A stretch of 37,889 nt of DNA from Gaiellaceae bacterium. GTDB lineage: Bacteria > Actinomycetota > Thermoleophilia > Gaiellales > Gaiellaceae. Below the pieces are notes generated by a model. The model was given only the letters and a program-made list of their open reading frames with translations. It was not told where the DNA came from and searched no databases. Position 1 is the first letter of the stretch; every line of letters begins with the position of its first letter. The stretch lies in contig JBOGZW010000001.1 in NCBI GenBank assembly GCA_050697575.1, forward strand, positions 1 through 37,889, written 5' to 3'. Of this stretch, positions 10,991 to 24,641 are shown piece after piece. The position numbers and the translations under genes were made by a program.

Positions 10991-11706
10991 TGAAAGTATT
11001 GGCCCCCGTCGATGACGATCGTCTGGCCGGTGATGAAGTCGGCGGCGGGCGTGCACAGGAAGACGACCGCGCCGGCCACGTCCTCGGGCACCTGATCGCG
11101 CTTGATCGTGCGGGCAGCAATGGACACGTCACGAAGCTTCTCCACGACCTCGGGGTGCGCCTTGACGCCCTCGGACATGGTGAATCCGGGTGCGACGCAG
11201 TTGACGTGGATTGCGTCCTTTCCCAGCTCCTTCGCCAGCGCGCGGGTGAAGGCGACGATCGCGCCCTTGCTCGTCACGTAGTGGAGCAGGAACGGCACAC
11301 CGCGGAACGGCGTGCCCGAGGAGATGTTGACGATCTTCCCGCCGCCCTGCTCGCGCATCACGGGCACGACCGCGCGGCAGGTGAGGAACATCGACGCGAC
11401 GTTCACGTCCATCACCTGGCGCCACTCGTCGAGGGGAATCTCCTCGAACGAGCGCATTGCAAGAGACGCGTAGAGGCCGGCGTTGTTGACGAGCACGTCG
11501 ATCCTGCCGTGCCGGCCGTGCACTTCCTTGACCATGTCAGCCACGTCCGCTTCGGATGAGACGTCGCAGCGGATCCCGCCGTCGGGCGGCGCCAGGTCGG
11601 CGACGACGACCGTGGCTCCAGCCGCCGCCATCCCGTCCGCGATCGCGGCGCCGATCCCTCGCGCGCCGCCGGTGACGATCGCCACCTTGCCGTCCAGCGC
11701 GCTCAC
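10987..11706 (-). CDS. Short-chain dehydrogenase/reductase (FabG-like)
   Basis: GTG start overlaps the NIPSNAP stop. TGGARGIGAAIA, NNAG, catalytic S...YxxxK (YVTSKGA), PGFT. 239 aa. Confidence 0.92.
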   Translation of the reverse strand: MSALDGKVAIVTGGARGIGAAIADGMAAAGATVVVADLAPPDGGIRCDVSSEADVADMVKEVHGRHGRIDVLVNNAGLYASLAMRSFEEIPLDEWRQVMDVNVASMFLTCRAVVPVMREQGGGKIVNISSGTPFRGVPFLLHYVTSKGAIVAFTRALAKELGKDAIHVNCVAPGFTMSEGVKAHPEVVEKLRDVSIAARTIKRDQVPEDVAGAVVFLCTPAADFITGQTIVIDGGQYFH

Positions 11707-12017
11707 TGCAACGGAGAGAACGAGGTCGGGACGAGGATGCGGTTGTGCTGCGTGTGGATGAGCGGCTGGATCTTCGCGAGGAACGCGACCCAGCGCGGAT
11801 CGGCCTGCAGGCGGGCGCGCCGCTGCTCCCGCTCGGCGTACGAGTCGTAGCGCCAGAGCGACGTGTACGTGGAGAGCGCTCCGATGTCCGTCGTGAAGGC
11901 GCCTACGAAGCCGCCGAGATACTCCTCCTGGATCGCGATCCCCTCATCGTCGTATAGCCGCACGAGCTCCGGCAGCTTGCCGGTCGTCACGTGGTAGTCG
12001 CGCTGCTCGAGGATCAC
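11703..12017 (-). CDS. NIPSNAP-family protein (small alpha/beta dimeric barrel)
   Basis: 104 aa with GTG start. MILEQRDYHVTTGKLPELVRLYDDEGIAIQEEYLGGFVGAFTTDIGALSTYTSLWRYDSYAEREQRRARLQADPRW matches the NIPSNAP pattern. First gene of the coupled operon. Confidence 0.75.
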   Translation of the reverse strand: MILEQRDYHVTTGKLPELVRLYDDEGIAIQEEYLGGFVGAFTTDIGALSTYTSLWRYDSYAEREQRRARLQADPRWVAFLAKIQPLIHTQHNRILVPTSFSPLQ

Positions 12018-12056
12018 GCGCCAAGCCTATGCCCTGAAAGGTCGGTCTTGTTCGAC

Positions 12057-12062
12057 GATAAT
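12057..12062 (+). promoter_or_regulatory. Possible -10 hexamer GATAAT, 6 nt upstream of ATG 12069 (leaderless-type)
   Basis: Lies in the 51-nt AT-richer divergent spacer 12018..12068. No Shine-Dalgarno precedes the ATG. Motif-only call. Confidence 0.3.
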
Positions 12063-12068
12063 CGGGTC

Positions 12069-12422
12069 ATGGCCGAGCCGCGCTTCGTTCAGCTCGACGG
12101 GATCCGCGCGTTCGAACTCGCAGCCGGCGTGAAGGGACGGCCGCTGTTCGGGGAGGGAGCGATGCTCAACCTCATCGAGTTCGAGCCCGGCGCCACCGTG
12201 CCGCTGCACAGCCATCCCCACGAGCAGCTCGGGCTCGTCCTGCGCGGGATGCAGGCGCTCGTGATCGACGACGAGCCGCACGAGATGGGGCCGATGGAGG
12301 GCTACGTGATCCCCGGCGGCATCGAGCACTCGGCCTATTGCGGCGCCGACGGCGCTCTTGTCCTCGACGTCTTCCAGCCGGTCCGCGAAGACTACCGCGA
12401 GCGCTGGCACGCCGAGGGCTAG
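12069..12422 (+). CDS. Cupin-domain protein (small, single domain)
   Basis: ATG 12069 within ORF 11991..12422 (MAEPRFVQLDG...). Cupin metal motif HSHPHEQLGLVLRG...IPGGIEHS. 117 aa. Confidence 0.75.
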   Translation: MAEPRFVQLDGIRAFELAAGVKGRPLFGEGAMLNLIEFEPGATVPLHSHPHEQLGLVLRGMQALVIDDEPHEMGPMEGYVIPGGIEHSAYCGADGALVLDVFQPVREDYRERWHAEG

Positions 12423-12796
12423 CCGCTCAGAGCTGCTCGCTCGCGATCGGTTAGCGGCGTCGGCCGGCCGTCACCGCCTACGCGGACGACGACCAGGCGT
12501 CCGTCGACGCACAGCTCGCCGTCGCGCGTGATCTCGAAGCGCCACGTGATGGACGTCGTGCCGACACGCTCGGGCGTGATGCGCACGTCGATCTCGTCCT
12601 CGAAGCGGAGCACCTGGTGGAACTCCGCTTCCGCACGCTTGCGCGGATAGTCGACCCAGCCTTCGAGAAGTCCGAGCCGGCGGCGAAGCCCCGTCTCCGC
12701 CTGCTCGGCCCAGCGGAACACGTTCGAGAAGTGGATGCGACCGCCGGCGTCGGTGTCCACCCACGTCACGCGGAGGCGTTCGACGTGGTCGATCAC
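12419..12796 (-). CDS. Hotdog-fold acyl-CoA thioesterase (4-hydroxybenzoyl-CoA thioesterase/YbgC family)
   Basis: 125 aa. GTG overlaps the upstream stop. RVTWVDTDAGGRIHFSNVFRW carries the family's catalytic Asp motif. Confidence 0.8.
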   Translation of the reverse strand: MIDHVERLRVTWVDTDAGGRIHFSNVFRWAEQAETGLRRRLGLLEGWVDYPRKRAEAEFHQVLRFEDEIDVRITPERVGTTSITWRFEITRDGELCVDGRLVVVRVGGDGRPTPLTDRERAALSG

Positions 12797-13683
12797 AGCT
12801 CGAGGAGGGCCGGCGCGAGCTCGCGCAGCTGCTCGAGCTGGAAGTCCGCGGCCGGCAGCGGCTGGATGCAGACGTGGTCCGCGCCGGCAGTCAGGTGCTC
12901 GCCGACGCGAGTGCAGATCGCTTCGACGTCGCCCCAGGCGACGAGCGCGTCGAGCACGCGGTCGGAGCCGCTTCCGGCGAGATCCTCGTCCTCGAAGCCG
13001 AAGCGGCGCAGGTTGTTCGTGTAGTTCTCTAGCGCCAGATACGTGTCGAGGTAGCCCTGCGCCGCCTCGCGCGCAAGCGCTCGGTCGGACGCAATGACAA
13101 CGGCGACTTCCGGCGCCAGCAACCGGTCCGGGCCGAGCCGCTTCCGCGCGAAGGCCGTGTGCTCGACGGGCACGAAGTACGGGTGCGCTCCGTCGGTGCG
13201 CTCCGCCGCGAGCTTCAGCATCAGCGGCCCGAGCGCCGCGAGCAACGTCGGAACGGGCTCAGGCTCGGGCGGCCGGTAGGCCGCTCCCTCCATCGCGTCG
13301 AGGTACGCGCGCATCGTCGGGACGGGACGCCCGTAGTCGTGACCCCTGGCGCCGACGGAGGGTGCATGGCTGACGCCGAGGCCGAGCACGAAGCGGCCGG
13401 GATGCGCGTCGGCGAGAGTTCGGGCGCCGTTCCGTGTCGCCATCGGATCGCGGGCGTAGACGCTGAGGATGCCGGTGCACGCGACGAGGTTGCTGCTCTC
13501 GGAGAGGATGAAGGCCGCCGTCGTCAGCGACTCCCGACCGCCCACGCTCTCCGGGAACCAGAGGGCGCGAAAGCCGAGCTCTTCGACGGCGGCGATTCCG
13601 GCACGGACAATCTCGACAGGACTGAACACGGGCGCGTTGCACCAGAGGCCGACACGGCCCACTCGTGCGGCAAGCTCGCTCAC
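12793..13683 (-). CDS. Luciferase-like monooxygenase family, probable F420-dependent oxidoreductase
   Basis: 296 aa. LWFPESVGGRESL..., GRFVLGLGVSH, AAERTDGAHPY and the C-terminal ...VAWGDVEAICTRVGEHLTAGADHVCIQP are typical of the LLM F420 class. GTGA overlap with the ADH stop. Confidence 0.82.
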   Translation of the reverse strand: MSELAARVGRVGLWCNAPVFSPVEIVRAGIAAVEELGFRALWFPESVGGRESLTTAAFILSESSNLVACTGILSVYARDPMATRNGARTLADAHPGRFVLGLGVSHAPSVGARGHDYGRPVPTMRAYLDAMEGAAYRPPEPEPVPTLLAALGPLMLKLAAERTDGAHPYFVPVEHTAFARKRLGPDRLLAPEVAVVIASDRALAREAAQGYLDTYLALENYTNNLRRFGFEDEDLAGSGSDRVLDALVAWGDVEAICTRVGEHLTAGADHVCIQPLPAADFQLEQLRELAPALLEL

Positions 13684-14774
13684 GGCACGACGAGCACGCG
13701 GCCAGGGACGCCGGCCAGCGCAGCCTCGACGGCGTCGTTCGCATCGTCGAGCGAGAACCTCGGGCCGAGCTGCGTTCCCAGCTCGAGGGCACCCGAACGG
13801 ACGTGGCCGAGCAGAATGGGTAGTGCGACAGCAGGGTCCTCCGAGCCGTAGATCGTCCCGGTCAGCGCCTTCTCGCGGCGGATGAACTCCGTGGGATCGA
13901 GCTCGAGCTTCGCGCCCAGTGCGGGCAGGCCGACGATGACAGTGAGCCCGCCGTTTCGAGTCCAGCGAAATGCCGTCTTCGTCGTGGCCGGATCGCCGAC
14001 CGCGTCGAAGGCGTAGTCGACGCCGTCAGGGAGGCTCTCCTTCATGAGCGACGCGAGCCCGTCCGGCTGGACTACCCGCGTGGCTCCAAGCCGCTCCGCG
14101 AGCTCGAGCCGCTCTTCGAGCGGATCGACGCAGACGATCTCGATGGCACCCGCAATCCGTGCTCCTTGAACGATGAACTGCCCTACGCCCCCCGATCCAA
14201 CGACGAGCACCGTCGAGCCCTGCTCGACGCCTGCCGCGAACAGCACCGCCCCGACGCCCGTCAATGCGGCGCAGCCGAGCAGGGCGGCTTCCTCCAGCGG
14301 CACGCCGCCACCGAGTGGCAGCGCCACCTGCTCGGAGACGACGAGTCGCTCCGACAGGGCGCCCGTCGCCGTCCCGCGATAGAGCGTCTCGCCGTCGAGC
14401 CGCATGCCGGTCTCGCCGTCCAGCAGCGTCCCACCGGCGATCGCGTACTGCAAGGACATGCACGCCGCCGGCCGGCCGCGCCGGCAGTCAGGGCACTCGC
14501 GGCAGGACGGAGCCCACGAGAGCACGACCTCGTCGCCGGGCGTGAGCCCTTCGACACCCTCGCCGACCGCCTCCACCACGCCGGCCCCTTCGTGGCCGAG
14601 CACCATCGGCGTCGGCCGCTGCCACTCGCCCTTGACGACGTGCAGGTCGGTGCCGCAGATGCCGACCGCGGCCATGCGGACAAGCACCTCGCCGGGCCGC
14701 GGCTCGTCCAGCTCGATCTCGCGGACCTCGAGCGGCCGTCCCTGCTCCCAGAAGACGGCCGCCCGCGTGTTCAC
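13680..14774 (-). CDS. Zinc-dependent medium-chain alcohol dehydrogenase
   Basis: Within ORF 13680..15101. GTG 14774 (VNTRAAVFWEQG...) overlaps the upstream stop. GICGTDLH, GHEGAGVVEAVG, structural-Zn cysteines SCRECPDCRRGRPAAC, VVGSGGVGQ. 364 aa. Confidence 0.9.
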   Translation of the reverse strand: MNTRAAVFWEQGRPLEVREIELDEPRPGEVLVRMAAVGICGTDLHVVKGEWQRPTPMVLGHEGAGVVEAVGEGVEGLTPGDEVVLSWAPSCRECPDCRRGRPAACMSLQYAIAGGTLLDGETGMRLDGETLYRGTATGALSERLVVSEQVALPLGGGVPLEEAALLGCAALTGVGAVLFAAGVEQGSTVLVVGSGGVGQFIVQGARIAGAIEIVCVDPLEERLELAERLGATRVVQPDGLASLMKESLPDGVDYAFDAVGDPATTKTAFRWTRNGGLTVIVGLPALGAKLELDPTEFIRREKALTGTIYGSEDPAVALPILLGHVRSGALELGTQLGPRFSLDDANDAVEAALAGVPGRVLVVP

Positions 14775-15391
14775 GCGTCGAGCGCTTCCGCCACCTCGCC
14801 GCAGTTGGTGACCGTGGCGACGTTCTGGAGGGCGTAGTTGATCGAGGCGTTGTGCCAGTCGGCGTTCATGGTCGAGCAACCGTCCTCGGGCACGACCATG
14901 TAGTAGCCCTTGTCGGCGCCCGTCCGCGACGTGTGCTCGATGGACATGTTCGTCCAGGCGCCGGTGACGATGACCGTGTCGCGTCCCAGCTCCTCGAGCA
15001 GGCTCTCGAGGTTCGTTTCGTGCCAGGCGCTCATGCGCATCTTCTCCACCACATGATCGCCGTCCTGCGGCTCGAGTCCCTCGGCCGCCGCCGCGCCCCA
15101 CGAGCCGCGCACGAGCGCGTCCGTCTCCTTCACGCCCTCGAACAGCGGCGCGTTCAGCTTCAGTCCGGGACAGCCCTTCTCGACGATGTAGTGCACGTGG
15201 ATGACCGGGACGCCCTTCTCCCGCGCCTTCGCCGCAAGTGCCTTCACGTTCTCGACGACGTTCTGCTCCTTCGCGTGCTCCGGCGAGCCCGAGTCCGCAA
15301 AGGCACCGCCTTCGATGATGACGTCGTTCTGCAGGTCCTGGACGATCAGGACACAGCGGCTCGCGTCGAGCTTCAGCGGTTCGTCAGCCAT
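14771..15391 (-). CDS. Isochorismatase-like hydrolase family protein (Ser at the usual nucleophile Cys position)
   Basis: 206 aa with ATG start. It is preceded by TAAGGAGGAGAG, i.e. the lactonase stop followed directly by a strong SD. Family Asp (IVQDLQND), Lys (VEKMRMSAW), and TNMSIEHT where cysteine hydrolases have TDxCVxxT. Confidence 0.82.
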   Translation of the reverse strand: MADEPLKLDASRCVLIVQDLQNDVIIEGGAFADSGSPEHAKEQNVVENVKALAAKAREKGVPVIHVHYIVEKGCPGLKLNAPLFEGVKETDALVRGSWGAAAAEGLEPQDGDHVVEKMRMSAWHETNLESLLEELGRDTVIVTGAWTNMSIEHTSRTGADKGYYMVVPEDGCSTMNADWHNASINYALQNVATVTNCGEVAEALDA

Positions 15392-15400
15392 CTCTCCTCC
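15392..15400 (-). promoter_or_regulatory. Shine-Dalgarno (GGAGGAGAG) filling the whole 9-nt spacer between the lactonase stop and the isochorismatase-like start
   Basis: The reverse complement of 15389..15403 reads TAAGGAGGAGAGATG. Confidence 0.7.
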
Positions 15401-16312
15401 TTATCGCATGTAGGGCTCGCGACGCGGCCCAACGATCGTCCGAATCGAGTAGAGCGACGTCGAGCTCGGGATGAAGAGCGTGTGCCAGTCCTCGCCGCCC
15501 CACGCGAGGTTCCCGGTGTTCTCGGGGACGAGGATCGTCCCGAGATGCTCCCCGGCAGCCGAGAGCACCCAGATCCCGCCCGGTCCGGTCACCCAGATGT
15601 TCCCGCGCTCGTCGCACTTCATGCCGTCCGGGATGCCTTCCTCGATGACGCCGGAGCCGATGCCCTCGAAGAACATCCGGCCATTCGAGATGTTTCCGTC
15701 CGCATCCGCATCCCACACCTTGATGTGCGCGCGCGGCGTGTCGTTGATGTACAGCAGCGACTCGTCGGGCGAGAAACAGAGGCCGTTCGGCATCTCGAAC
15801 TCGTCACGGCCGACGACGAGCTCGAGGTCGCCGCCGCCCGGCGGGACGCGATAGACGCCCTGGAAGCCTAGCCGCCGCTTCCGTGGGAGGCCGAAGACAG
15901 GCATGCGGCCGTACCACGGGTCGGAGAAGTAGATGGCGCCGTTCGAGTGGACCATGACGTCGTTCGGCGAGTTGAGCTCGTCGCCCTCGAACTCCTGGGC
16001 GATGATCTCGCGCTCGCCGTCCGGGCTCTCGCGCACGAGACAGCTCGTGACGTGCTCGCAGACGAGAAGGTTGAGGTCGGCGTCGTACGTCATGCCGTTG
16101 CACCTGTTCGCGAAGTTCTTCACCTCGACGACGCCGCCGTCTGCACTCCATCTGCGGCGGACATCGCCGGGCATGTCGCTGAACAGCAGATGGTGCTCTG
16201 TCGGGTGCCAGATCGGGCCTTCGGTGAACGTGAAGCCCGTCGCCAGCTGCTCGACCTCGACGTTCGGATCGACGAGCTCGGTGAGTTTGTCGGACTTGAC
16301 GTCTACGGCCAC
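15401..16312 (-). CDS. SMP-30/gluconolactonase/LRE-family lactonase (six-bladed beta-propeller)
   Basis: Frame of ORF 15401..16369. I prefer GTG 16312 (VAVDVKSDKL...) because GGAAAGGAG lies 5 nt upstream. Motifs: TEGPIW, NRCNGMTYD, LNSPNDV, PNGLCFSPDE, PDGMKCDERGNIWV. 303 aa. Confidence 0.85.
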   Translation of the reverse strand: MAVDVKSDKLTELVDPNVEVEQLATGFTFTEGPIWHPTEHHLLFSDMPGDVRRRWSADGGVVEVKNFANRCNGMTYDADLNLLVCEHVTSCLVRESPDGEREIIAQEFEGDELNSPNDVMVHSNGAIYFSDPWYGRMPVFGLPRKRRLGFQGVYRVPPGGGDLELVVGRDEFEMPNGLCFSPDESLLYINDTPRAHIKVWDADADGNISNGRMFFEGIGSGVIEEGIPDGMKCDERGNIWVTGPGGIWVLSAAGEHLGTILVPENTGNLAWGGEDWHTLFIPSSTSLYSIRTIVGPRREPYMR

Positions 16313-16369
16313 ACCGGCTCCTTTCCGTATCAACCGTGAACGGCGCGAACCTAACAGAGAATCCGCCAC

Positions 16370-16384: not shown

Positions 16385-18070
16385 ATGGCCGAACGGAAGC
16401 CAGTACTCCTCGCCGTGGACGACGACAGGGAGGTCGTCCGGGCGGTCGAGCGCGATTTACGCAATCACTTTGCGCGCGACTTCACGGTGCTCGCCGCAGA
16501 GTCGGGCGAGGAAGCACTCGAGCTCATCCGTCGTCTCGTGCCGCGAGGGGACCCCCTGGCGCTCGTCGTGACGGATCAGCGCATGCCCAGAATGACGGGC
16601 GTCGAGCTGCTCGCCCACGTCGCGGCCGAGGCGCCTGACGCGAAGCGCGTCCTCCTGACGGCGTACGCCGACACCGAGGTGGCGATGCGCGCCATCAACG
16701 AGATCCGGCTCGACCACTACCTCATGAAGCCCTGGCATCCGCCCGAGGAGCGGCTGTACCCGGTGCTCGACGATCTGCTCGAGGACTGGCACGCCGCCGC
16801 ATCGCGCGCACCGCTCCTGGCGGACGTGGACGGCGACGCCGTGTGCGTGATCGGCCATCGGCTGTCGGAGGACTCGCAGCGGGTGCGCGACCTGCTGGCG
16901 AACAACCAGATCGCGTACCGCTGGCTCGACGTGGAGGACTCCCGCGCCGGGAAAGTGCTGTCGGAAGCGTCGCTCACCGCGGACCGGCTTCCGGTCGTGC
17001 TCGTCCCGGACGCCGAGCCGCTCGTCAACCCCGATCCGGCCGAGGTCGCAGAGCGGATCGGCCTCCAGACCGACGAGGAGCTCGCGTACTACGACCTCGT
17101 CGTCGTCGGCGCCGGCCCCGCCGGGCTAGCAGCCGCGGTCTACGGGGCATCCGAAGGATTGCGAACGGTCGTCGTCGAGCGGCAGTCGTTCGGCGGACAG
17201 GCCGGAATGAGCTCGCGCATCGAGAACTACCTCGGCTTCCCGGCCGGGCTCTCCGGAGCCGACCTCGCGCGCCGCGCGACGACGCAGGCGCGCCGCTTCG
17301 GCTGCGAGCTCCTGACCGCTCAGGAAGCGGTCGGCATCGACGTGCTCGGCTCGACGCGAGTCGTTCGGCTCGCCGACGGCTCGTCCATCGCCTCCCACAC
17401 GGTGCTGCTCGCCCCGGGGGTGTCGTACCGGCGGCTGGATGCCGTGGGCGCCGAACGTCTCACGGGCCGCGGCATCTGGTACGGCACGGCGTCGACGGGC
17501 GACGCGGCGATGCTCAACGGCAACGAGGCGTTCGTCGTCGGCGGTGCGAACTCGGCGGGACAGGCGGCGCTCCATCTTGCGCGCGCGGCGCACGTGACGA
17601 TCCTCTATCGCGGCTCGAGCCTCCAGAAGTCGATGTCGCAGTACCTCGTCGAACGCATCGAGTCCATGCCGGACGAGATCACGGTACTGCTGAACACGGA
17701 GGTCCGCGAGGCCCACGGCGAGAACCAGCTGGAGGAGATCGCGATTGACGAGGCCGGCACCCTGTCGCGCATTCCGGCCACAGCGATGTTCGTCTTCGTC
17801 GGCGCCGAGCCGCACACCGACTGGCTCGGCAACGCGCCGGCGCGCTCGGACCGCGGGTTCATCCTCACCGGCGATCAGGTGCTGAACGTGCCCAGGGGCT
17901 GTCCACCCTGGCCGATGAAGAGCCGGGAGCCGCTTGCGCTCGAAACGAGCATCCCGGGCATCTTCGCCGCCGGCGACGTCCGCGACCAGTCGATCAAGCG
18001 CGTCGCCTCGGCGGTGGGAGAGGGCTCGATGGCGGTTCTGCTCGTCCACCGGTACCTCGGGGGCCTGTAG
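16385..18070 (+). CDS. Response-regulator receiver fused to a glutaredoxin-like linker domain and a thioredoxin-reductase-like FAD/NAD(P)H oxidoreductase lacking the CxxC redox centre
   Basis: 561 aa. REC: LAVDDD, VVTDQRMP, LLTAYAD, YLMKPW. Flavoprotein: DLVVVGAGPAGLAAAVYG, FVVGGANSAGQAALHL, GIFAAGDVRD. The position of the TrxB CATC reads GTASTG. Confidence 0.9.
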   Translation: MAERKPVLLAVDDDREVVRAVERDLRNHFARDFTVLAAESGEEALELIRRLVPRGDPLALVVTDQRMPRMTGVELLAHVAAEAPDAKRVLLTAYADTEVAMRAINEIRLDHYLMKPWHPPEERLYPVLDDLLEDWHAAASRAPLLADVDGDAVCVIGHRLSEDSQRVRDLLANNQIAYRWLDVEDSRAGKVLSEASLTADRLPVVLVPDAEPLVNPDPAEVAERIGLQTDEELAYYDLVVVGAGPAGLAAAVYGASEGLRTVVVERQSFGGQAGMSSRIENYLGFPAGLSGADLARRATTQARRFGCELLTAQEAVGIDVLGSTRVVRLADGSSIASHTVLLAPGVSYRRLDAVGAERLTGRGIWYGTASTGDAAMLNGNEAFVVGGANSAGQAALHLARAAHVTILYRGSSLQKSMSQYLVERIESMPDEITVLLNTEVREAHGENQLEEIAIDEAGTLSRIPATAMFVFVGAEPHTDWLGNAPARSDRGFILTGDQVLNVPRGCPPWPMKSREPLALETSIPGIFAAGDVRDQSIKRVASAVGEGSMAVLLVHRYLGGL

Positions 18071-18075
18071 ACATC

Positions 18076-19449
18076 GTGGAGCCCGGCGAGCTTCGCAAGA
18101 TCGCCCTCCTCGCAGACTTGCCCGACGCGCGGCTCGAGGAGCTCGCCCGGCACGGCCGCGAGCTGATCCTCGGGCCCGGGGAGTACCTCTTCCGTGAGGG
18201 CGAGGAGGCCACATTCCTGTCCCTGCTGCTCGAGGGAGAGCTCGAGACGACGCGCACGGTAGGCGGCGACGAGCTTCCGATGATCCATCACGAGCCCGGC
18301 GGCTTTCTCGGCGCGATCTCTCTCGTCACCGGCGGGGTCTACGGCGGCTCGACGCGCTCGGTCGGCATGAGCCGCCTCTTTCTCCTCGAGCCCGAGGCAT
18401 TCCGGGCACTGCTCGTCTCGGAACCGGCGGTATTCACCGCCGTCATGGACGTTTTCGTCCCCGTGATCACGAATTACACGGCCATCGAGCGCGACCGCGA
18501 CCGGCTTCTGTCCTTGGGCACGCTCGCGGCGGGGCTCGCACACGAGCTGAACAACCCCGCTGCCGCTGCACAGCGAGCTGCCTCGGAGCTCCGGTCGGCC
18601 GAACGGCACGCCCAGGCAGCGCTCTCGCAACTCGCCGGCAGCGGCCTCGATTCGGACGGAATGGGACGGCTCTGCACGCTCACGGCTGAGGCTCTCGCGG
18701 CATTGGAGTCTGCGCCGCCTCTCGACAGTCTCGACCGAGCCGATCGTGAGGCGGAGCTTGCAGCATGGCTCGCCGAGCGTGGAGCTCCGGCGGACAACGG
18801 AACAGCCGAACTCGTCGACGCCGGCCTCGATGAGGAGTGGCTCGAACGGCTGCTCGCAATCGCCCCGGGAGAGCCCGGCTCCGTCGTCGCATGGATCACC
18901 TCACGCCTGACAGCGACGCGGATCACGCGCGAGCTCGAGGATTCGACCGGGCGCATCTCGCAACTCGTCCAGTCGGTCAAGCAGTACTCGTATCTCGACC
19001 AGACTCCGCAGCAGGAGGTGGATGTCCACGAGGCGCTCGAGAGCACGCTCGCGATCCTCGGCCACAAGATCGCGGAGCGTGGGATCGAGATCGTGCGGGA
19101 GTACGACCGCTCCCTGCCGCGCATCGATGCCCACGCCGCGGAGCTCAACCAGGTATGGACGAACCTCATCGACAACGCCGTCGCCGCCGCGAACGCCCGG
19201 GTGACGATCCGGACGTATCGGTCGGTCGAATTTCTGATCGTCGAGGTCGAGGACGACGGCCCCGGCGTTCCTCCCGAGATCGCAGAGCGCGTCTTCGACG
19301 CGTTCTTTACGACGAAGGAGCCGGGTGAGGGCACCGGCCTGGGGCTCGACATCGCTCGCAGGATCGTCGTTCGGCACCACGGCGACCTCCGGCTCAAGCC
19401 GGTCGAACGCGGAGCCTGCTTTCAGGTGTCGCTGCCGCTCGGCCGCTAG
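18076..19449 (+). CDS. Cyclic-nucleotide-binding-domain sensor histidine kinase
   Basis: 457 aa. GTG start 5 nt after the upstream stop. N-terminal CAP-effector-type domain (LLADLPDARLEELARHG...LFREGEEA...STRSVG). H-box LAHELNNP. N/G1/F/G2 boxes NLIDNA, VEDDGPGVP, FDAFFTTK, GEGTGLGLDIA. Confidence 0.9.
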   Translation: MEPGELRKIALLADLPDARLEELARHGRELILGPGEYLFREGEEATFLSLLLEGELETTRTVGGDELPMIHHEPGGFLGAISLVTGGVYGGSTRSVGMSRLFLLEPEAFRALLVSEPAVFTAVMDVFVPVITNYTAIERDRDRLLSLGTLAAGLAHELNNPAAAAQRAASELRSAERHAQAALSQLAGSGLDSDGMGRLCTLTAEALAALESAPPLDSLDRADREAELAAWLAERGAPADNGTAELVDAGLDEEWLERLLAIAPGEPGSVVAWITSRLTATRITRELEDSTGRISQLVQSVKQYSYLDQTPQQEVDVHEALESTLAILGHKIAERGIEIVREYDRSLPRIDAHAAELNQVWTNLIDNAVAAANARVTIRTYRSVEFLIVEVEDDGPGVPPEIAERVFDAFFTTKEPGEGTGLGLDIARRIVVRHHGDLRLKPVERGACFQVSLPLGR

Positions 19450-19667
19450 GACTCGCCCGTGAGGAGCCTCTGCGTCTGAGCCGCGTGCCACACGAGGCTC
19501 ATCGCCTCGAAACGGTCGATCGCCTGCCTGAGCAGCTCGTCGTCCTCCCGGGCGAAGCCGAGTGCACGCAGTGCAAACGGTTCGACGTACGTCTCCGGCT
19601 GGATCAGACGCGGCGCCTCCCGCTCGATCTCCTGGCGCCGATCCAACGCAGCATTTCTCCTGGTCAA
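19446..19667 (-). pseudogene. Orphan 3' fragment (or small ORF) resembling the C-terminal end of a helical-repeat regulator
   Basis: Last about 73 codons of minus ORF 19446..20243: ...NAALDRRQEIEREAPRLIQPETYVEPFALRALGFAREDDELLRQAIDRFEAMSLVWHAAQTQRLLTGES. The composition looks protein-like. By my hand count about 84% of codons end in G/C, versus about 69% for the overlapping plus frame. Only TTG starts are available (19667, 19646). Its stop shares CTAG with the kinase stop. Confidence 0.3.
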
Positions 19668-20357
19668 CGTGTCCTCGACGTAGCCGCCGGGACCGGAAAC
19701 GTCGCGATCCGTGCGGCGGAGGCCGGGGGACACGTCGTTGCGTTGGACATCACCCCAGAACACTTCGAGTCGGGGCACGCGGAGGCCGAGGCTCGCGGAG
19801 TCACGGTCGAATGGGTCGAGGGGGATGCGCAGTCGCTGCCGTTTGGCGATGACGAGTTCGATGTCGTGACGTCGTCGTTCGGGGCCATCTTCGCTCCTGA
19901 TCACCAGCAGGTTGCGGACGAGTTCCTCCGTGTGTGCCGCCCCGGAGGCACGGTCGGTATGACGTGCTTCCCGCCGGTTGGCCTGGCTGCGGACTTTTTC
20001 GGTGTCGTCGCGCCGTACATGCCTGCGCCGCCACCCGAAGCGTTGTCGCCGCTGCTTTGGGGTACCGGGCAGCATGTGCGGGAACTTTTCGGCGACCGCG
20101 TCGAGTCGTTGGAGATGACCGAGGGGACGTACACCGAGGGCGCACCGAGCCCGCAGGCATACGTCGACCTGTACAAGGAGACGTTCGGACCGGTGATCAG
20201 CCTCTACGAGGCCCTCCATGACGAACCCGACCGCGTTGCACAACTCGACCGTGAATTCCTCGACTTTGCCGAGCGCGCAAATCGAGGTGCCCCGGACGGC
20301 TCGGCGGAGTACCCCTACGAGTACGTTCTCGTGGTGGCGCGAAAACGGGACGCGTAG
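19485..20357 (+). CDS. Class I SAM-dependent methyltransferase; N-terminus doubtful (possibly 5'-truncated)
   Basis: Core from about 19660: PGQRVLDVAAGTGNVAIRAAEAGGHVVALDITPE..., FDVVTSSFGAIFAPDH, VCRPGGTVGM. The only canonical in-frame start upstream of motif I is GTG 19485. The 60 aa it adds look like antisense noise (Cys/Arg-rich, lower GC3). Confidence 0.65.
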   Translation: MPHEAHRLETVDRLPEQLVVLPGEAECTQCKRFDVRLRLDQTRRLPLDLLAPIQRSISPGQRVLDVAAGTGNVAIRAAEAGGHVVALDITPEHFESGHAEAEARGVTVEWVEGDAQSLPFGDDEFDVVTSSFGAIFAPDHQQVADEFLRVCRPGGTVGMTCFPPVGLAADFFGVVAPYMPAPPPEALSPLLWGTGQHVRELFGDRVESLEMTEGTYTEGAPSPQAYVDLYKETFGPVISLYEALHDEPDRVAQLDREFLDFAERANRGAPDGSAEYPYEYVLVVARKRDA

Positions 20358-20391: not shown

Positions 20392-20793
20392 CTACTCGTC
20401 GGCCGGCTCGAAGTCCAACGCCAGGCTGTTGATGCAGTAGCGCAGGCCCGTCGGCTGCGGGCCGTCGGGGAAGACGTGGCCGAGGTGGGAGTCGCAGGCT
20501 GCGCACCGCACCTCCGTCCGCCGCATGCCGTGGCTCAGGTCTTCCTCCGTCTCCACCGCATCCTCCGCCAGCGGTGCGAAGAAGCTCGGCCAGCCGGATC
20601 CCGAGTCGAACTTCGTGTCCGACCGGAAGAGCTCTGCTCCGCAGGCGCCGCAACGGAAGACGCCGTCGTCGTGCACGAGGTTCAGCTCGCCCGACCAGGG
20701 CGCCTCGGTCGCACCGCACCGCAGCACCTGGTAGCGATCGGGGTCGAGCTCGGCCTGCCACTCCCCTTCCGTTTTCTCAACCCGCTCCGTCAT
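20392..20793 (-). CDS. msrB: Peptide-methionine (R)-S-oxide reductase MsrB
   Basis: ATG 20793 within ORF 20392..21261, with ATGA overlap of the XdhC stop. Zn CxxC pairs ([10 protein letters not shown]; [13 protein letters not shown]), GSGWPSF, RYCINS. 133 aa. Confidence 0.92.
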
Positions 20794-21548
20794 CCGACTA
20801 CCTCCTCCGCGTGGATGCGTTTCCTGGACTCCTTGAGCTTGCCTCCGTCGCGACTCATGCGAACGGCGAGCACCTCGGCGAGGATCGAGAGCGCCGTCTC
20901 CGGCTGCGACTCGGCGCCGATGTCGAGGCCGCACGGGCCTTGGATCCGCTCGAGCGCTTCCTCGTCCACGCCGGCCTCGAGCAGCCGCTCGCGGCGGCGC
21001 TCCTGGTTGCGGCGCGAGCCGAGCGCCCCGATGTAAAACGCCTCCGTCTCGAGCGCCGCCTTCAGCGCGGGCACGTCGAACTTGTCGTCGTGCGTGAGGA
21101 CGACGATCGCCGTCGCGTGGTCGGGCGCGACCTGCGCGAACGCCTCCTCCGGCCACTCGACAATGATCTCGTCTGCGCTCGGGAGCCGCTCCCGGGTCGC
21201 GAACTTCTGGCGGGCGTCGGCGACGATCGCGCGCCAGCCGAGCAGCTTCGCCGCCTTGCACATCGCCTCGGCCGTGTCGACGGCGCCGTAGACGAGCAGG
21301 CGCGGCGGCGGGCCGTAGATCTCGGCGAAGACCTTCGTCTCGCCGAGGTCGAGGATCCGGTTCCGGTGGCCGCGGATCAGCTGCTCCGCCTGGGAGAGCG
21401 CGACCTCGGGGACACCGTCGCCGTGACGCTCGCCGCCCTCGAGCACGAGGGCGTGCGCGCCGAGGGGGTCCCCCTCGATGACGGTGAAGAGGACGGCCCG
21501 CTCCTCCTCGCCCTCGACGACCTCGAGCAGCCGATCAGTGACCGTCAT
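20790..21548 (-). CDS. XdhC/CoxI-family molybdenum-cofactor insertion chaperone (degenerate N-domain plus Rossmann-like C-domain)
   Basis: 252 aa with ATG start. [33 protein letters not shown]...[18 protein letters not shown]...[10 protein letters not shown] is typical of the XdhC C-terminal domain. Confidence 0.8.
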
Positions 21549-21617: not shown

Positions 21618-24600
21618 CTACACGGCCTCGAGGAACGCACGCGCGCGTTTGACGCCGACCAGATTGCCCTTCTCCTCGTAGAGGCGGAGCGCCTCCTCCA
21701 CGGCGGAACGCTCCTCCCTCTCGCCACGAGCGCGGTGAATTTCGGCAAGGATGAGCCACGCATCGGCCGCCCACTCGACGTAGCCGATTCCGAGGGCGAC
21801 GTCCGCAGCCTTACGAGCTGCCTCCTCGGCCGCCGCGAAGTGGCCCCGCGCGAGGGTTAGCCTCGCGCGCAGCAGGGCGAGCTGCGCCTCGTGGTCGAGA
21901 TCGTCGCTCGCGCTGAGCTCATCGCCCACGCCATAGAGACGCTCGGCCTCGTCAAGCCGGCCCTGCCTCAGGGCCGCGTCGGCGAGATCCAACGCAACGT
22001 TCGACAGCAAGGCCTTGTTGCCTCTTCGCTCGAACTGCTCGTAGGCCTCGCGGAGTGCTGCCTCGCCGTGCTCCCAGTCGCCGGACCACGAGCAGACGTC
22101 CCAGACGCAAACCGCGGTGACTGCGTACTCTCGCTCCTTGCCGAGCTCGCGTAGGCCGCGCCGGTACTCGCCCATCGCCTCGAGCGCGCCGTCGAACTCG
22201 CCCAGGCGCGCCTGCATGTGGGCGTGGAGGTGGAGCGCGAACTGCTGCATGCCCGGGACGTGGCCGAGCCGCTCGACGATCTCCTGCGCGTACTGCAATC
22301 CCTCCTCGACCCGCCCCGGCCCCCAGATGAAGTCAGGGGCCCGCATCCCCGCGAGGCTCACCTCGAGCTCCAGACTCCCTGCCAGCCGAGCGTGTGTCAG
22401 CGCGCGCTCGAGAGCCTCCATGTACTCGCTCCTCGCCCCGCGCGAGGTGTGGACGGCGGCGATGCGCCCCCACGCCGTCGCCAGCACCTCGTGGTCGGCT
22501 GCGGCTTCGCGCGCTGCGACTGCCGCCGTCGCCTCCTCGAAGATGCGCTCGCTCGCGCCCTCGGGATCTCGCAGCGCTCGGACGAGGGCGAGCCAGACGC
22601 GTCCGAGCCACTCGGCGTGGTCGTCCCGCGCTTCGCGCGCGAGCGTGACCCCCTGCTCCAAGGCTGCCTGCGACCGCTCGAGCTCGTCGGCGTCGTTCAG
22701 CGCCTTGCCGAGCCGGACGAACAGCAGCGGGCGGTCGGCGCCGCCGGTGGCGAGCTCGACCGCGCGGTCGAGGAGGTTCACGGCAGCGGCGACGTCCGAC
22801 CGCCCGGTCGCGGCACGCGCAGCCGCAGCGAGCCGCTCCGCAGCGCGGTTCCCCACAGAGCGATCCGGCATGCCGAGCTCCGCGCCGTACAGGTAGGCCT
22901 GCTCGAGGTGGTAGCCGACGACCTCGTCCGCAGCGTCGTCACCGAGCCTCGCCTCGAGCCAGTCCGCGAACCGCTCGTGGAGCGCCGCCCGCTGGCGCTT
23001 GGGGATGGCGTCGTACGCCGCGTCGCGGATGAGGATGTGGCCGAAGCGGAACGCGTCGTCACCCGGCAAGGTGGCAAGGTCGGGCCGGATCAGCTCCTTG
23101 CGGACGAGCGACAGCAGGTGCGCACCGACCTCCGCTCGCTCGGGCTCGGACAGGAGCGCTGCGACAGCTCCACGGTGGAACAGCCGTCCTTCGACCGAGC
23201 CCCGCTGCGCGGCCGCGCGCTCCTGCTCGCCGAGGCGGTCGATGCGGGCGGAGAGAAGCGCCTGCAGCGTCGGCGGCACCTCGAGCACATCGCCGCTCTC
23301 GGCCTGCATCGCGACGAGCTGCTCGACGAAGAGGGGGTTGCCCTCCGCAGCCTGGACGATGCGCTCCCGGGTCTCATCCGGGAGGTCGACGAGTTGCTCC
23401 ACGAGCGTCTCGCTGTCTGTCTCCGAGAGGGCCTGGAGCGTAATCACGGTGGCGTTGAGCTTCGGTGCCGTCCAGGTCGGCCGCAGGTCGAAGACGTCGG
23501 GCCGCGCCGTGCAGAGAACGAGTAGCGGGACGTCGTGCGCGAACGAGGCGACGTACTCGATGAGATCGAGGAACGCCGGCTCCGCCCAGTGGATGTCGTC
23601 GAAGACGGCAACGAGCGGCGCTTGAGCCGCAAGCGCTTCGAGCAGCCTGCGGACACCCCAGGCGATCTCTTCGGGCGAGACCGGCGTATCCCTCGTACCG
23701 AGCGCCGCCTCGATTCGGATAGCGGCGAGCTCCGCGTCGCTCGCTCCCTGCAGCGCGGAACGGAGATCCCCGACCTGAGATGCGATCTCCTGCAGCGGCC
23801 AGTACGTGATCCCCTCGCCGTATGAGAGGCAACGGCCGACGACTACGCGCGCCTCCACGCGTCCGAGCAGCTCGCGCGCCAGGCGCGACTTCCCGATGCC
23901 CGGCGCCCCGACGATCGTCGCCAGCTGCGGCGTCCGGGTTTCGGTGGCGGTGGCGACCGCGGCCTCGAGCGACTCGAGCTCTTCCGAGCGACCGACGAAC
24001 GGCGCGTCGATCGGGCGCGTGAACGCAGGGACCCGGTCGCCCAGCCCGAGCACCCGAAAGGCAGGGACGGGCTCCTGCTTGCCCTTCAGCGTCAGCGGTT
24101 CGACCGGCTCTGCGAGGACCAGGTCGCGCACGAGGTGCTCGGTGGCGGCGCCGATGAGAATCTCGCCTGCACCTGCCGACTGCTCGAGCCGGGCGGCGAC
24201 GTTCACGGCGTCACCCGTGGCGAATGTCTCACCGGTGCCGGCGACGACCTCGCCGGTGTTGACGCCGATGCGCACCTCGAGTCCCATGGTCAAGACGGCA
24301 TCCCGCATCTCGATCGCCGCACGCACCGCACGGAGCGCGTCGTCCTCGTGCACCTGCGGCAGGCCGAAGACGGCCATCGCCGCATCGCCCACGAATTTCT
24401 CGACCGTACCGCCGTGACGCTCCAGGGTCACGCGGAGCTCGGCGTGGTAACGAGCCATGACGTCGCGTAGCACCTCCGGATCAGTGCGTTCGCCGAGCGC
24501 CGTCGAGCCGACGAGGTCGCAGAAGACGACGGTCACGATCTTTCGGACGTCGCCCTGTGCCTCGGGTGCGAGGGGTGCGCCGCAGTTACCGCAGAAGCGG

Positions 24601-24641
24601 AAGCCCTCTGGATTCTCCTGGCCGCACGAGGCGCAGATCAC
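21618..24641 (-). CDS. Multidomain regulator: zinc-ribbon + class III adenylate/guanylate cyclase + AAA (P-loop) ATPase + TPR/helical repeats
   Basis: 1007 aa with GTG start. CASCGQENPEGFRFCGNCGAPL. Cyclase motifs VVFCDLVGST, KFVGDAAMAVFG, RIGVNTGEVV, GDAVNVAARLE. Walker A GAPGIGKS. Long C-terminal Ala/Leu/Glu-rich repeat region. Confidence 0.9.
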   Translation of the reverse strand: MICASCGQENPEGFRFCGNCGAPLAPEAQGDVRKIVTVVFCDLVGSTALGERTDPEVLRDVMARYHAELRVTLERHGGTVEKFVGDAAMAVFGLPQVHEDDALRAVRAAIEMRDAVLTMGLEVRIGVNTGEVVAGTGETFATGDAVNVAARLEQSAGAGEILIGAATEHLVRDLVLAEPVEPLTLKGKQEPVPAFRVLGLGDRVPAFTRPIDAPFVGRSEELESLEAAVATATETRTPQLATIVGAPGIGKSRLARELLGRVEARVVVGRCLSYGEGITYWPLQEIASQVGDLRSALQGASDAELAAIRIEAALGTRDTPVSPEEIAWGVRRLLEALAAQAPLVAVFDDIHWAEPAFLDLIEYVASFAHDVPLLVLCTARPDVFDLRPTWTAPKLNATVITLQALSETDSETLVEQLVDLPDETRERIVQAAEGNPLFVEQLVAMQAESGDVLEVPPTLQALLSARIDRLGEQERAAAQRGSVEGRLFHRGAVAALLSEPERAEVGAHLLSLVRKELIRPDLATLPGDDAFRFGHILIRDAAYDAIPKRQRAALHERFADWLEARLGDDAADEVVGYHLEQAYLYGAELGMPDRSVGNRAAERLAAAARAATGRSDVAAAVNLLDRAVELATGGADRPLLFVRLGKALNDADELERSQAALEQGVTLAREARDDHAEWLGRVWLALVRALRDPEGASERIFEEATAAVAAREAAADHEVLATAWGRIAAVHTSRGARSEYMEALERALTHARLAGSLELEVSLAGMRAPDFIWGPGRVEEGLQYAQEIVERLGHVPGMQQFALHLHAHMQARLGEFDGALEAMGEYRRGLRELGKEREYAVTAVCVWDVCSWSGDWEHGEAALREAYEQFERRGNKALLSNVALDLADAALRQGRLDEAERLYGVGDELSASDDLDHEAQLALLRARLTLARGHFAAAEEAARKAADVALGIGYVEWAADAWLILAEIHRARGEREERSAVEEALRLYEEKGNLVGVKRARAFLEAV

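Follow-up and report, generated by a model that had tools for sequence, protein, structure and literature searches.

A response regulator whose thioredoxin reductase-like output module lacks redox cysteines

Described relatives and the response regulator of the window

Response regulators (RRs) with an output resembling thioredoxin reductase (TrxR) are already catalogued as the 'TrxB' response-regulator family of the Galperin and P2CS classification. P2CS-based reviews list Streptomyces coelicolor SCO7298 together with its kinase SCO7297 (PMC9739842), and a further member is recorded in a thermophilic cyanobacterium (PMC9953108). In the literature SCO7298 figures as 'trxB3 / putative thioredoxin reductase', with reported induction by acid shock (PMC2631018) and, independently of AdpA, by polysulfide (PMC9952706). 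Here we analysed a gene of this type in a 37,889-nt stretch of DNA from a Gaiellaceae bacterium (contig JBOGZW010000001.1; hereafter the window). The RR gene (16385..18070, plus strand) begins with ATG and encodes a product of 561 aa, in which a receiver (REC) domain is followed by a linker helix, a glutaredoxin (Grx)-like domain and a TrxR-like FAD/NAD(P)H module, as delineated by the open reading frame (ORF), by Pfam and NCBIfam matches and by end-to-end homology over residues 5-558. Like SCO7298/SCO7297, it combines REC with a TrxB-type output and is followed by its histidine kinase (HK) in RR-HK order, with no architectural difference, and Streptomyces orthologues are found among the best 80 RR loci.

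What is new here concerns the unit formed by the Grx-like and TrxR-like parts (about residues 150-558 of the RR), which we call the cassette. The absence of cysteines from the cassette is family-wide and sometimes total, its Grx-like part is linked by sequence to mycoredoxin and NrdH with SxxS in place of CxxC, and the same cassette is shared by proteins with REC and with cyclic nucleotide (cNMP)-binding domains. In addition, the REC-type proteins are paired across phyla with a kinase bearing a cNMP-type sensor, and a published enzyme, ATII-TrxR, is recognised as a member of the family. The census papers on TrxB RRs mention neither the redox-dead Grx fold nor the missing cysteines nor the shared cassette (the Galperin 2006/2010 originals lie outside this comparison). 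We consider it probable, though well short of certain, that the RR is a signal-gated NAD(P)H-oxidising flavoenzyme, in which FAD is reduced and its electrons then pass directly to an acceptor, no protein dithiol being involved.

The earlier note on this DNA knew of no functional study, which is untrue of the wider family, as ATII-TrxR has been characterised. This protein of 552 aa, consisting of a cNMP domain and TrxB and 87% identical to WP_011516654 of Cupriavidus metallidurans, is a dimeric FAD protein with a Km of 5.2 μM for NADPH and 4.2 μM for NADH, and it reduces DTNB [5,5'-dithiobis(2-nitrobenzoic acid)] directly at 5.6 s-1 (PMC6544261). Its authors placed it among the high-molecular-weight TrxRs by size, left the missing CxxC unremarked and used a model to propose redox centres; expression was in E. 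coli, and the study contains no Cys mutants and no cAMP test and describes no controls (PMC6544261). The sole homologue in C. metallidurans CH34 belongs to the cassette family (GVYYW-ASPVEAKLC, no CATC), and its Cys 187, 204 and 357 match Cys206, 223 and 376 of ATII-TrxR with a constant offset of 19. Judged by sequence, ATII-TrxR is a cNMP-fused member of the cysteine-less cassette family, with CATC absent. A second enzyme, which offers a precedent for our reading, is Bdr/YpdA, a TrxR-fold flavoprotein without CxxC and with high, cysteine-independent NADPH oxidase activity, of which a triple Cys-to-Ala mutant keeps O2-dependent NADPH oxidase activity but loses bacilliredoxin reduction (PMC8113031).

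The flavoprotein module of the RR (residues 236-561; 17090..18067, plus strand) is of the two-Rossmann, low-molecular-weight (low-Mr) TrxR type, in agreement with the earlier note. Pfam Pyr_redox_2 covers residues 236-547 (E=5e-33), and the closest solved relatives are low-Mr TrxRs (7jyp, E=3e-38; 5uth, E=8e-37). Foldseek with the AlphaFold2 (AF2) model of the RR returned AhpF and TrxR matches, the best superposition being on a TrxR in the flavin-reducing (FR) conformation (5mh4, target TM (TMt) 0.84). The RR has the FAD plus NADPH fold of low-Mr TrxR as defined by its motifs (GxGxxG, GGQ, GGGxxA and GD), with the FAD motifs GxGxxG at residues 242-247, GGQ at 270-272 and GD at 530-531, and with the NAD(P)H dinucleotide-binding motif GGANSAGQ at residues 386-393 (17540..17563, plus strand), in invariant or nearly invariant columns. 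Together with GGANSAGQ, GAGPAGLAAAVYG and GIFAAGDVR are nearly invariant among relatives. The likeness to low-Mr TrxR (TrxB, EC 1.8.1.9) further includes an identity of about 26-31%, the acid after the active-site loop and the C-terminal end point. Unlike low-Mr TrxR, however, the RR lacks C-A-T-C, its HRR motif is down to one Arg (the invariant R409, downstream of GGANSAGQ), it contains an insertion of 12-19 residues, and it carries REC and Grx-like domains fused N-terminally. The TrxR equivalog model TIGR01292 of NCBIfam matches the RR end to end, yet at 200.2 bits, below the cutoff of 343.45.

The family-specific insertion (residues 497-518; 17873..17938, plus strand) lies just before the TS.PG.FAAGD FAD motif and was delimited by conservation and by alignment with E. 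coli TrxB and cNMP-fused members. It has no counterpart in E. coli TrxB, is modelled confidently by AF2, with a predicted local distance difference test (pLDDT) score of 87-91, and carries the invariant residues W509, R514 and P516, whose strict conservation beside the flavin suggests a substrate site. A separate observation concerns residues 270-291 (17192-17257), GGQAGxSSRIENYLGFPxGxSG, which form the most conserved stretch of the family and yet have the lowest AF2 confidence (pLDDT 42-49), probably because this loop needs FAD, absent from the model, to become ordered.

Three other groups of enzymes resemble the RR in part. AhpF, the top multi-domain Foldseek match (4o5q, E=3e-28), also places a thioredoxin (Trx)-fold domain N-terminal to a TrxR-like module. 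It has two Trx folds with CxxC and another CxxC in the TrxR module, whereas the RR has a single Grx fold, with SxxS, and lacks CxxC. The predicted domain arrangement of the RR fails to superpose on AhpF (root-mean-square deviation 17-28 Å), and its score with the AhpF model TIGR03140 is 151 bits (cutoff 503), which places it outside AhpF. Bdr/YpdA and the TrxR-like ferredoxin/flavodoxin-NADP+ reductases (TRLF FNR) are like the RR in that a TrxR fold functions without CxxC, but neither is signal-regulated or Grx-fused. The RR belongs to neither group: it scores 60.7 bits with the Bdr/YpdA model TIGR04018 (cutoff 339.9) and lacks Cys14 of Bdr, and its kinship with TRLF FNR is weak (2zbw, E=4e-14; 5xhu, 3e-13; TrxRs, 1e-38), the C-terminal extension over the flavin being absent, with the RR ending level with E. 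coli TrxB. By comparison, ATII-TrxR and similar cNMP-fused proteins share the whole cassette, with 36-49% identity over RR residues ~150-558 and with GGQAGxSSRIENYLGFP, GGxNSAGQ and KRVASAVGEG in both. They differ from the RR, with its REC and kinase, in their directly fused cNMP-binding input, in a Cys that most of them have at alignment column 377, and in their gene contexts.

Absence of redox cysteines in the cassette family

The loop of the RR that matches C135-A-T-C138-D139 of TrxR reads G367-T-A-S-T-G372-D373 (17483..17503, plus strand) in alignments with TrxRs, being free of cysteine and keeping the acid D373, the equivalent of D139. The register of this loop moves by a residue or two from method to method, and no cysteine falls within it in any register obtained with HMMER, with MAFFT including E. 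coli TrxB, or in Foldseek-supported alignments, which bears out the GTASTG assignment made in the earlier note. A conserved CxxC or CxxxxC at the flavin, against which the earlier note had staked its reading, occurs in no alignment. A hidden motif of this kind in another register was also considered and rejected on the basis of HMMER, MAFFT and the family-wide columns; six CxxC/CxxxxC occurrences among the 80 orthologues are at unrelated, unconserved positions (residues about 425-475).

The extent of the family was assessed by several searches. A word-indexed homologue search with the RR gave at least 8000 matches, and an exhaustive search with residues 121-561 gave 2614 cluster representatives at E<=1e-30, the best 150 of which, all at <=1e-81, are the representatives referred to below. 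A scan of one genome per species gave at least 600 matches, of which the best 80 are the orthologous loci referred to throughout; these come from Cyanobacteriota, Chloroflexota, Actinomycetota, Acidobacteriota, Gemmatimonadota, Bacteroidota and Pseudomonadota, and their products are 47-55% identical to the RR across residues 5-558. A Cys pair at the CATC-equivalent loop was found in none of the 150 representatives, all of which show the pattern [VIL][YFW]Y[GAS]xxxx-E/D at this position. No cysteine at all is present in 17 of 133 full-length cassettes, and several of the entire proteins are also cysteine-free. The RR itself has three cysteines, C154, C307 and C506, which are not conserved even in relatives at 57-94% identity. 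On the other hand, GxGxxG, GGQAGxSSRIENYLGFP, GGxNSAGQ, R409 and GD vary little or not at all across the cassette family, and the RR carries every family motif, i.e. the pattern replacing CATC, GGQAGxSSRIENYLGFP, GGxNSAGQ, the W/R/P insertion and the Grx fold with SxxS/T. As far as these alignments can tell, strong purifying selection acts on the FAD, NAD(P)H and REC motifs, in keeping with the phosphorylation-gated NAD(P)H/FAD enzyme suggested in the earlier note, and the loss of cysteine in the cassette is ancient and family-wide.

The only frequent Cys of the cassette family is at column 377, four residues past the conserved acid, where the RR has Leu. It is present in 33 of 49 cNMP-type versus 6 of 64 REC-type representatives, the alternatives being L, M, F or V, and in 66 of the 81 best genome orthologues. 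This residue pattern suits a buried position more than it does a conserved catalytic thiol. The candidate was therefore rejected as a hidden catalytic thiol, given the Leu in the RR, the L/M/F/V in most REC-type representatives and the existence of Cys-free cassettes, although it may matter in the cNMP branch. Together, the missing Cys pairs, the cysteine-free cassettes and the variability of column 377 argue that thiol chemistry is not the conserved function.

The second site at which a dithiol might be expected is the middle domain (residues 150-232; 16832..17080, plus strand), which is assigned as a redox-dead, Grx-fold homologue of mycoredoxin and NrdH from AF2, Foldseek, profile comparison with the PDB and conservation. 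Pfam gave no match on residues 121-235. The AF2 model of these residues, built on a 60-sequence alignment, has a helix followed by a beta-alpha-beta-alpha-beta-beta-alpha arrangement (mean pLDDT 72.7, core 78-88). Its top Foldseek matches in the PDB are mycoredoxin-1 (Mrx1), an A. fulgidus Grx, the Grx domain of thioredoxin glutathione reductase (TGR), the NrdH-like BC3987 and N-domains of glutathione S-transferases (GST), with a probability of 0.99-1.0 and a target TM of up to 0.77, but an E-value of only ~1e-3. A profile from 38 diverse copies of the domain gave stronger matches in the PDB, namely mycoredoxin-1 (E=4e-9), BC3987 (6e-7), a Grx (9e-5) and NrdH (9e-3). In the profile alignment, W-C-G-Y-C of Mrx1 falls on the family consensus W-S-P-x-[S/T], and its C-G-Y-C is aligned with S161-E-D-S164 of the RR (nt 16865-16876). 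The consensus Trp before the active site, common to Mrx1 and the cassette family, is Leu in the RR. At position 161, the representatives have Ser (74), Asp (24), Ala (11) or Cys (6), and L202-P203, at the predicted cis-Pro position, is invariant among relatives. The domain thus has the fold and the cis-Pro position of mycoredoxin-1/NrdH and detectable profile homology to them, while it differs in having SxxS/T (SEDS in the RR) instead of CxxC, with neither CxxC nor CxxS at the active site, and in being embedded between REC and a flavoprotein. The Grx/NrdH-like fold without CxxC proposed in the earlier note is supported, but HRLS (H158-S161), which it placed at the CxxC site, is three residues off. 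With no dithiol at the flavin or in the Grx-like domain, the canonical TrxR mechanism is impossible for the RR.

The N-termini of the 150 representatives show how the cassette is used. REC is found in 64 and a cNMP-binding domain in 49; in 34 the N-terminus is short or absent (some of these are fragments), and 3 are unclassified. Rarer fusions include SnoaL-like plus REC domains and C-terminal EF-hands. By tblastn against annotated plasmids, RR residues ~150-558 are 45-49% identical to 'cyclic nucleotide-binding domain-containing thioredoxin-disulfide reductase' proteins of Rhodococcus, Paraburkholderia, Deinococcus, Streptomyces and Nocardia, which are also without CATC. The occurrence of a common cassette behind REC, behind cNMP domains or with no sensor domain detected suggests an output module for several input types, which would mark a general signalling output on redox/NAD(P)H metabolism rather than on transcription or cyclic di-GMP (c-di-GMP). 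Thousands of genes, in at least seven bacterial phyla and reportedly in some archaea, are labelled thioredoxin reductases without the defining chemistry, and works that count cassette genes in the thioredoxin system (e.g. in Streptomyces stress or sulfane-sulfur studies) probably misassign them. The label given in the earlier note, 'fused response regulator/thioredoxin-disulfide reductase', was not seen; NCBI uses 'FAD-dependent oxidoreductase' and JGI 'thioredoxin reductase (NADPH)'.

Phosphorelay, proposed mechanism and alternatives

The REC domain (residues 1-120; 16385..16744, plus strand) is complete, as the earlier note had claimed. Pfam Response_reg covers residues 9-120 (E=2.7e-16), and the residues that define a receiver are all present: the acidic pocket D12/D13, the phospho-acceptor D64 (nt 16574-16576), T92 and K115, none of which varies among 106 relatives. 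Its PDB matches are HupR and RpfG/HD-type receivers, and it shows (beta-alpha)5 topology in the AF2 model (pLDDT about 88-93). The linker (residues 121-149; 16745..16831, plus strand) was defined by the AF2 model and conservation as the PPEERLYPVLDDLLEDW helix, modelled at 124-139, followed by a disordered stretch with pLDDT <50 at 141-149; residues of P119-W135 are nearly invariant among relatives. The full-length model has a pLDDT of 81.9 and a predicted TM-score (pTM) of 0.64.

The gene of the cognate cytoplasmic histidine kinase (457 aa; 18076..19449, plus strand), identified by Pfam, conserved boxes and co-occurrence, begins 5 nt past the RR stop codon. It has a cNMP-type sensor at residues 1-135 (18076-18480, plus strand; Pfam cNMP_binding, E=6e-11), an H-box, AGLAH156ELNNP, with its His at nt 18541-18543, and HATPase_c at residues 355-456 (plus strand; Pfam, E=9e-23). 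All five boxes (H, N, G1, F and G2) are kept in 46 orthologues. A co-occurrence survey, as proposed in the earlier note, was positive: an orthologous kinase core (36-58% identity) is located <=5 kb away at 76 of the 80 RR loci, directly downstream of the RR gene in 61 and directly upstream in nine (adjacent in 70). By profile comparison, in which E. coli CRP scores 72 bits with the sensor domain, the kinase sensor is a genuine CAP/cNMP-type domain. The invariant REC residues, the intact kinase boxes, the genetic linkage and the 5-nt spacing all point to a functional phosphorelay, which we count in favour of a signal-gated flavoenzyme. An unusual feature of the kinase is an insertion of about 120 residues (~165-290; 18568-18945) that separates the H-box helix from helix 2 of the dimerisation domain; the insertion has several conserved positions (D, E, W, L) and is unusual in a HisKA-type dimerisation and histidine phosphotransfer (DHp) hairpin.

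In the mechanism that we propose, a soluble kinase with one recognisable input domain, of CAP/cNMP type, would phosphorylate D64 of the RR, whose output would be an enzyme rather than a DNA-binding domain, formed by the redox-dead Grx fold (SxxS) and the TrxR-fold flavoprotein. NAD(P)H would reduce FAD, and the reduced flavin would hand its electrons straight to an acceptor, for which O2, a quinone/dye-type compound, a reactive disulfide or polysulfide, or a redox protein are candidates. Phosphorylation of REC may reposition the linker helix and the Grx-like domain, which could act as a lid or docked-substrate mimic and so determine how the NADPH domain rotates and how accessible the flavin is; any choice of acceptor and of the sign of regulation is likewise inferred. 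FAD binding and NAD(P)H-dependent turnover would be expected by analogy with the sister protein ATII-TrxR, whose flavin content and NAD(P)H/DTNB turnover we accept as credible signs of a catalytically competent cassette. The superposition of the AF2 model on flavin-reducing TrxR (5mh4), along with AhpF as the top multi-domain match, is consistent with descent of the cassette from a fusion of an AhpF-like Trx-fold carrier with TrxR, in which all four relay cysteines would have been lost and a new function gained.

Several points weigh against a signal-gated flavoenzyme of this kind. That the Grx-like domain serves as a lid or gate is pure inference on our part, with a full-length pTM of only 0.64, and the Grx-site motif G-H/S-R-W-S, well kept in REC-type members, is variable in the wider family and so may have no ligand-binding role. 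The phosphate-binding cassette (PBC) of the kinase sensor is non-canonical, with the canonical Glu replaced by Ala and a longer loop, which makes the input ligand uncertain. No third conserved gene was found near the RR-kinase pair in the 80 loci, and the neighbourhood thus points to no acceptor. No biochemistry on a REC-fused member was found in the literature. Lastly, ATII-TrxR was reported to carry out thioredoxin-dependent insulin reduction with a Km of 1 μM and a kcat of 28 s-1 (PMC6544261). If real, this rate would turn at least the cNMP-fused branch into true thioredoxin reductases whose mechanism is unexplained; the result needs replication, as carry-over of TrxB from the E. coli host is, in our own view, one trivial explanation.

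It is accordingly conceivable, although we consider it unlikely, that the RR is a real disulfide reductase regulated by phosphorylation, which would act on thioredoxin or on a low-molecular-weight disulfide or polysulfide by a flavin-direct or monothiol mechanism, as an extension of the published reading of ATII-TrxR to the REC branch. The reported reduction of DTNB and thioredoxin by a protein without CATC agrees with this, as does the example of Bdr/YpdA, in which a TrxR-fold enzyme reduces a disulfide without CxxC. The acid equivalent to TrxR D139 is kept (E/D373), SCO7298 is induced by polysulfide and acid shock, and a Rhodococcus cNMP-fused member adjoins trxA. However, the RR has no conserved Cys, and the column 377 Cys of ATII-TrxR (Cys376) is absent from it; entire cassettes are Cys-free; and Bdr, once stripped of all Cys, loses bacilliredoxin reduction. 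No thioredoxin gene is conserved beside the REC-type pair in the 80 loci, the ATII-TrxR paper has neither Cys mutants nor described controls, and its thioredoxin-dependent signal could come from the TrxB of the E. coli expression host. The statement of the earlier note that the protein 'cannot be a thioredoxin reductase' therefore holds for the canonical FAD-CxxC-thioredoxin mechanism but not in general, given the ATII-TrxR report. This report comes near to the published biochemistry of an ordinary TrxR that would have told against the note, but falls short of it, with its missing mutants and controls and a Cys that the RR does not share.

Loss of both catalytic dithiols while the cofactor sites are kept would also suit a sensor, in which the flavin reads the NAD(P)H/NAD(P)+ ratio or oxygen/redox state and the cassette either modulates phosphotransfer, REC serving the kinase as sink or feedback element, or acts by way of protein contacts, with little or no turnover. 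Such a role would agree with the lack of a conserved substrate or partner gene, and a second, metabolic input would make sense next to a kinase whose only input is a divergent cNMP-type domain. We regard it as quite improbable, however: the cassette is C-terminal to classic input domains (REC, cNMP), which is the usual place of outputs, ATII-TrxR turns over NAD(P)H several times per second, the strictly kept insertion by the flavin (W509/R514/P516) suggests a substrate site, and a pure sensor would leave the two-gene module without an output. An ordinary thioredoxin reductase, as the JGI label and the name 'trxB3' for SCO7298 imply and as the best sequence and fold matches might suggest, is barely credible with no CxxC in any register and 200 bits against the TIGR01292 cutoff of 343. 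The same applies to a decaying, non-functional relic of one, which is excluded by about 50% full-length identity across phyla, by cofactor and phospho-acceptor motifs that do not vary and by the conservation of the partner kinase.

The signal-gated flavoenzyme, which we continue to prefer for the RR, can be extended to the whole family. Only tentatively, and as an idea more likely to fail than to hold, we suggest that the cassette represents an unrecognised class of signalling output enzyme, in which NAD(P)H electron flow would be switched by REC phosphorylation, by cyclic nucleotide or possibly by Ca2+ (EF-hand). If true, electrons could go to O2, giving H2O2 or superoxide as a secondary signal, or to a small-molecule or protein acceptor; the class would be a bacterial counterpart of signal-gated NADPH oxidases or, alternatively, would contain the first TrxR-fold enzyme reducing disulfides without a protein thiol. 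Naming the acceptor would define a new branch of two-component/cNMP signalling and would extend or correct the ATII-TrxR report. The system is tractable, with soluble proteins, a two-gene unit and members in model hosts (S. coelicolor SCO7297/7298, Nostoc and Cupriavidus metallidurans).

Gene neighbourhood and related loci

The genes around the RR-kinase pair were compared with those at the orthologous loci; the methyltransferase, MsrB, XdhC and cyclase genes of this neighbourhood are not a recurring feature there. A promoter/terminator scan found nothing, at a GC content of 69% at which such a scan tells little. Upstream (11703-16369) lies a run of genes for small-molecule metabolism, encoding NIPSNAP, cupin, 4HBT thioesterase, luciferase-like monooxygenase, Zn-dependent alcohol dehydrogenase, isochorismatase and SMP-30/gluconolactonase (SGL) proteins, all on the minus strand save the cupin and mostly syntenic with a close relative (L087, ENA contig_43058). 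The listed gluconolactonase ORF starts only 15 nt from the ATG of the RR, so that its true start is probably further in.

Downstream, a UbiE/COQ5-like S-adenosylmethionine (SAM) methyltransferase (19485-20357, plus strand) follows the kinase after 36 nt on the same strand; its absence from that position in L087 and at each of the 80 orthologous loci makes it a probable local insertion outside the module. It is followed by MsrB (SelR, a thioredoxin-dependent methionine sulfoxide reductase; 20392-20835, minus strand) and an XdhC-type accessory protein (20790-21548, minus strand), whose ORFs overlap by about 46 nt. This pair is also found behind the kinase in L087 and has no wider conservation. 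A protein of 1007 aa (21618-24641, minus strand), 2.2 kb from the kinase, comprises a zinc ribbon, a class III adenylate/guanylate cyclase, AAA_16 and TPR, and could supply the kinase ligand locally. A cyclase near the pair is also present in L087 and in L033, but not at the other 78 orthologous loci.

The close relative L087 also illustrates an artefact. Its genes for the isochorismatase, SGL, RR (394 aa, without REC) and kinase (191 + 263 aa) are each broken up, as is typical of frameshift errors in long-read assembly. The 394-aa 'REC-less' and 191-aa 'cNMP-only' close relatives were therefore rejected as real architectures, since neighbouring genes of the contig are split by the same type of error; spurious database entries of this type are P0090, P0092 and P0288-P0298. 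Similarly, P0124 (REC-cassette-cNMP) is probably a read-through of adjacent genes and was not used as a Rosetta-stone fusion.

We also considered a specific kinship between the cNMP-type domain of the kinase and the cNMP domains fused to cassettes, i.e. the same sensor in two wirings. This idea was left weak, because the 72 bits of CRP with the kinase sensor profile equal the median of cassette cNMP domains (73 bits) and only a subset of the latter scores 99-109 bits. In the plasmid collection, the outcome had seemed favourable to it, as the kinase sensor gave two matches only, one in an orthologous kinase and the other in a cNMP-cassette protein. The latter, the sole non-kinase match, is encoded on a plasmid of Deinococcus sp. 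QL22 (L084, 3998-8369), where the cNMP-fused cassette gene is followed by one for a large EAL-domain (c-di-GMP phosphodiesterase) protein. On plasmid pA of Rhodococcus pyridinivorans (L081, 1-6699), co-directional genes encode a J-domain protein, CbpM, ClpB, TrxA, a UBP-type zinc finger protein, a cNMP-fused cassette and DUF1931, a chaperone/stress context unlike that of REC-type loci.

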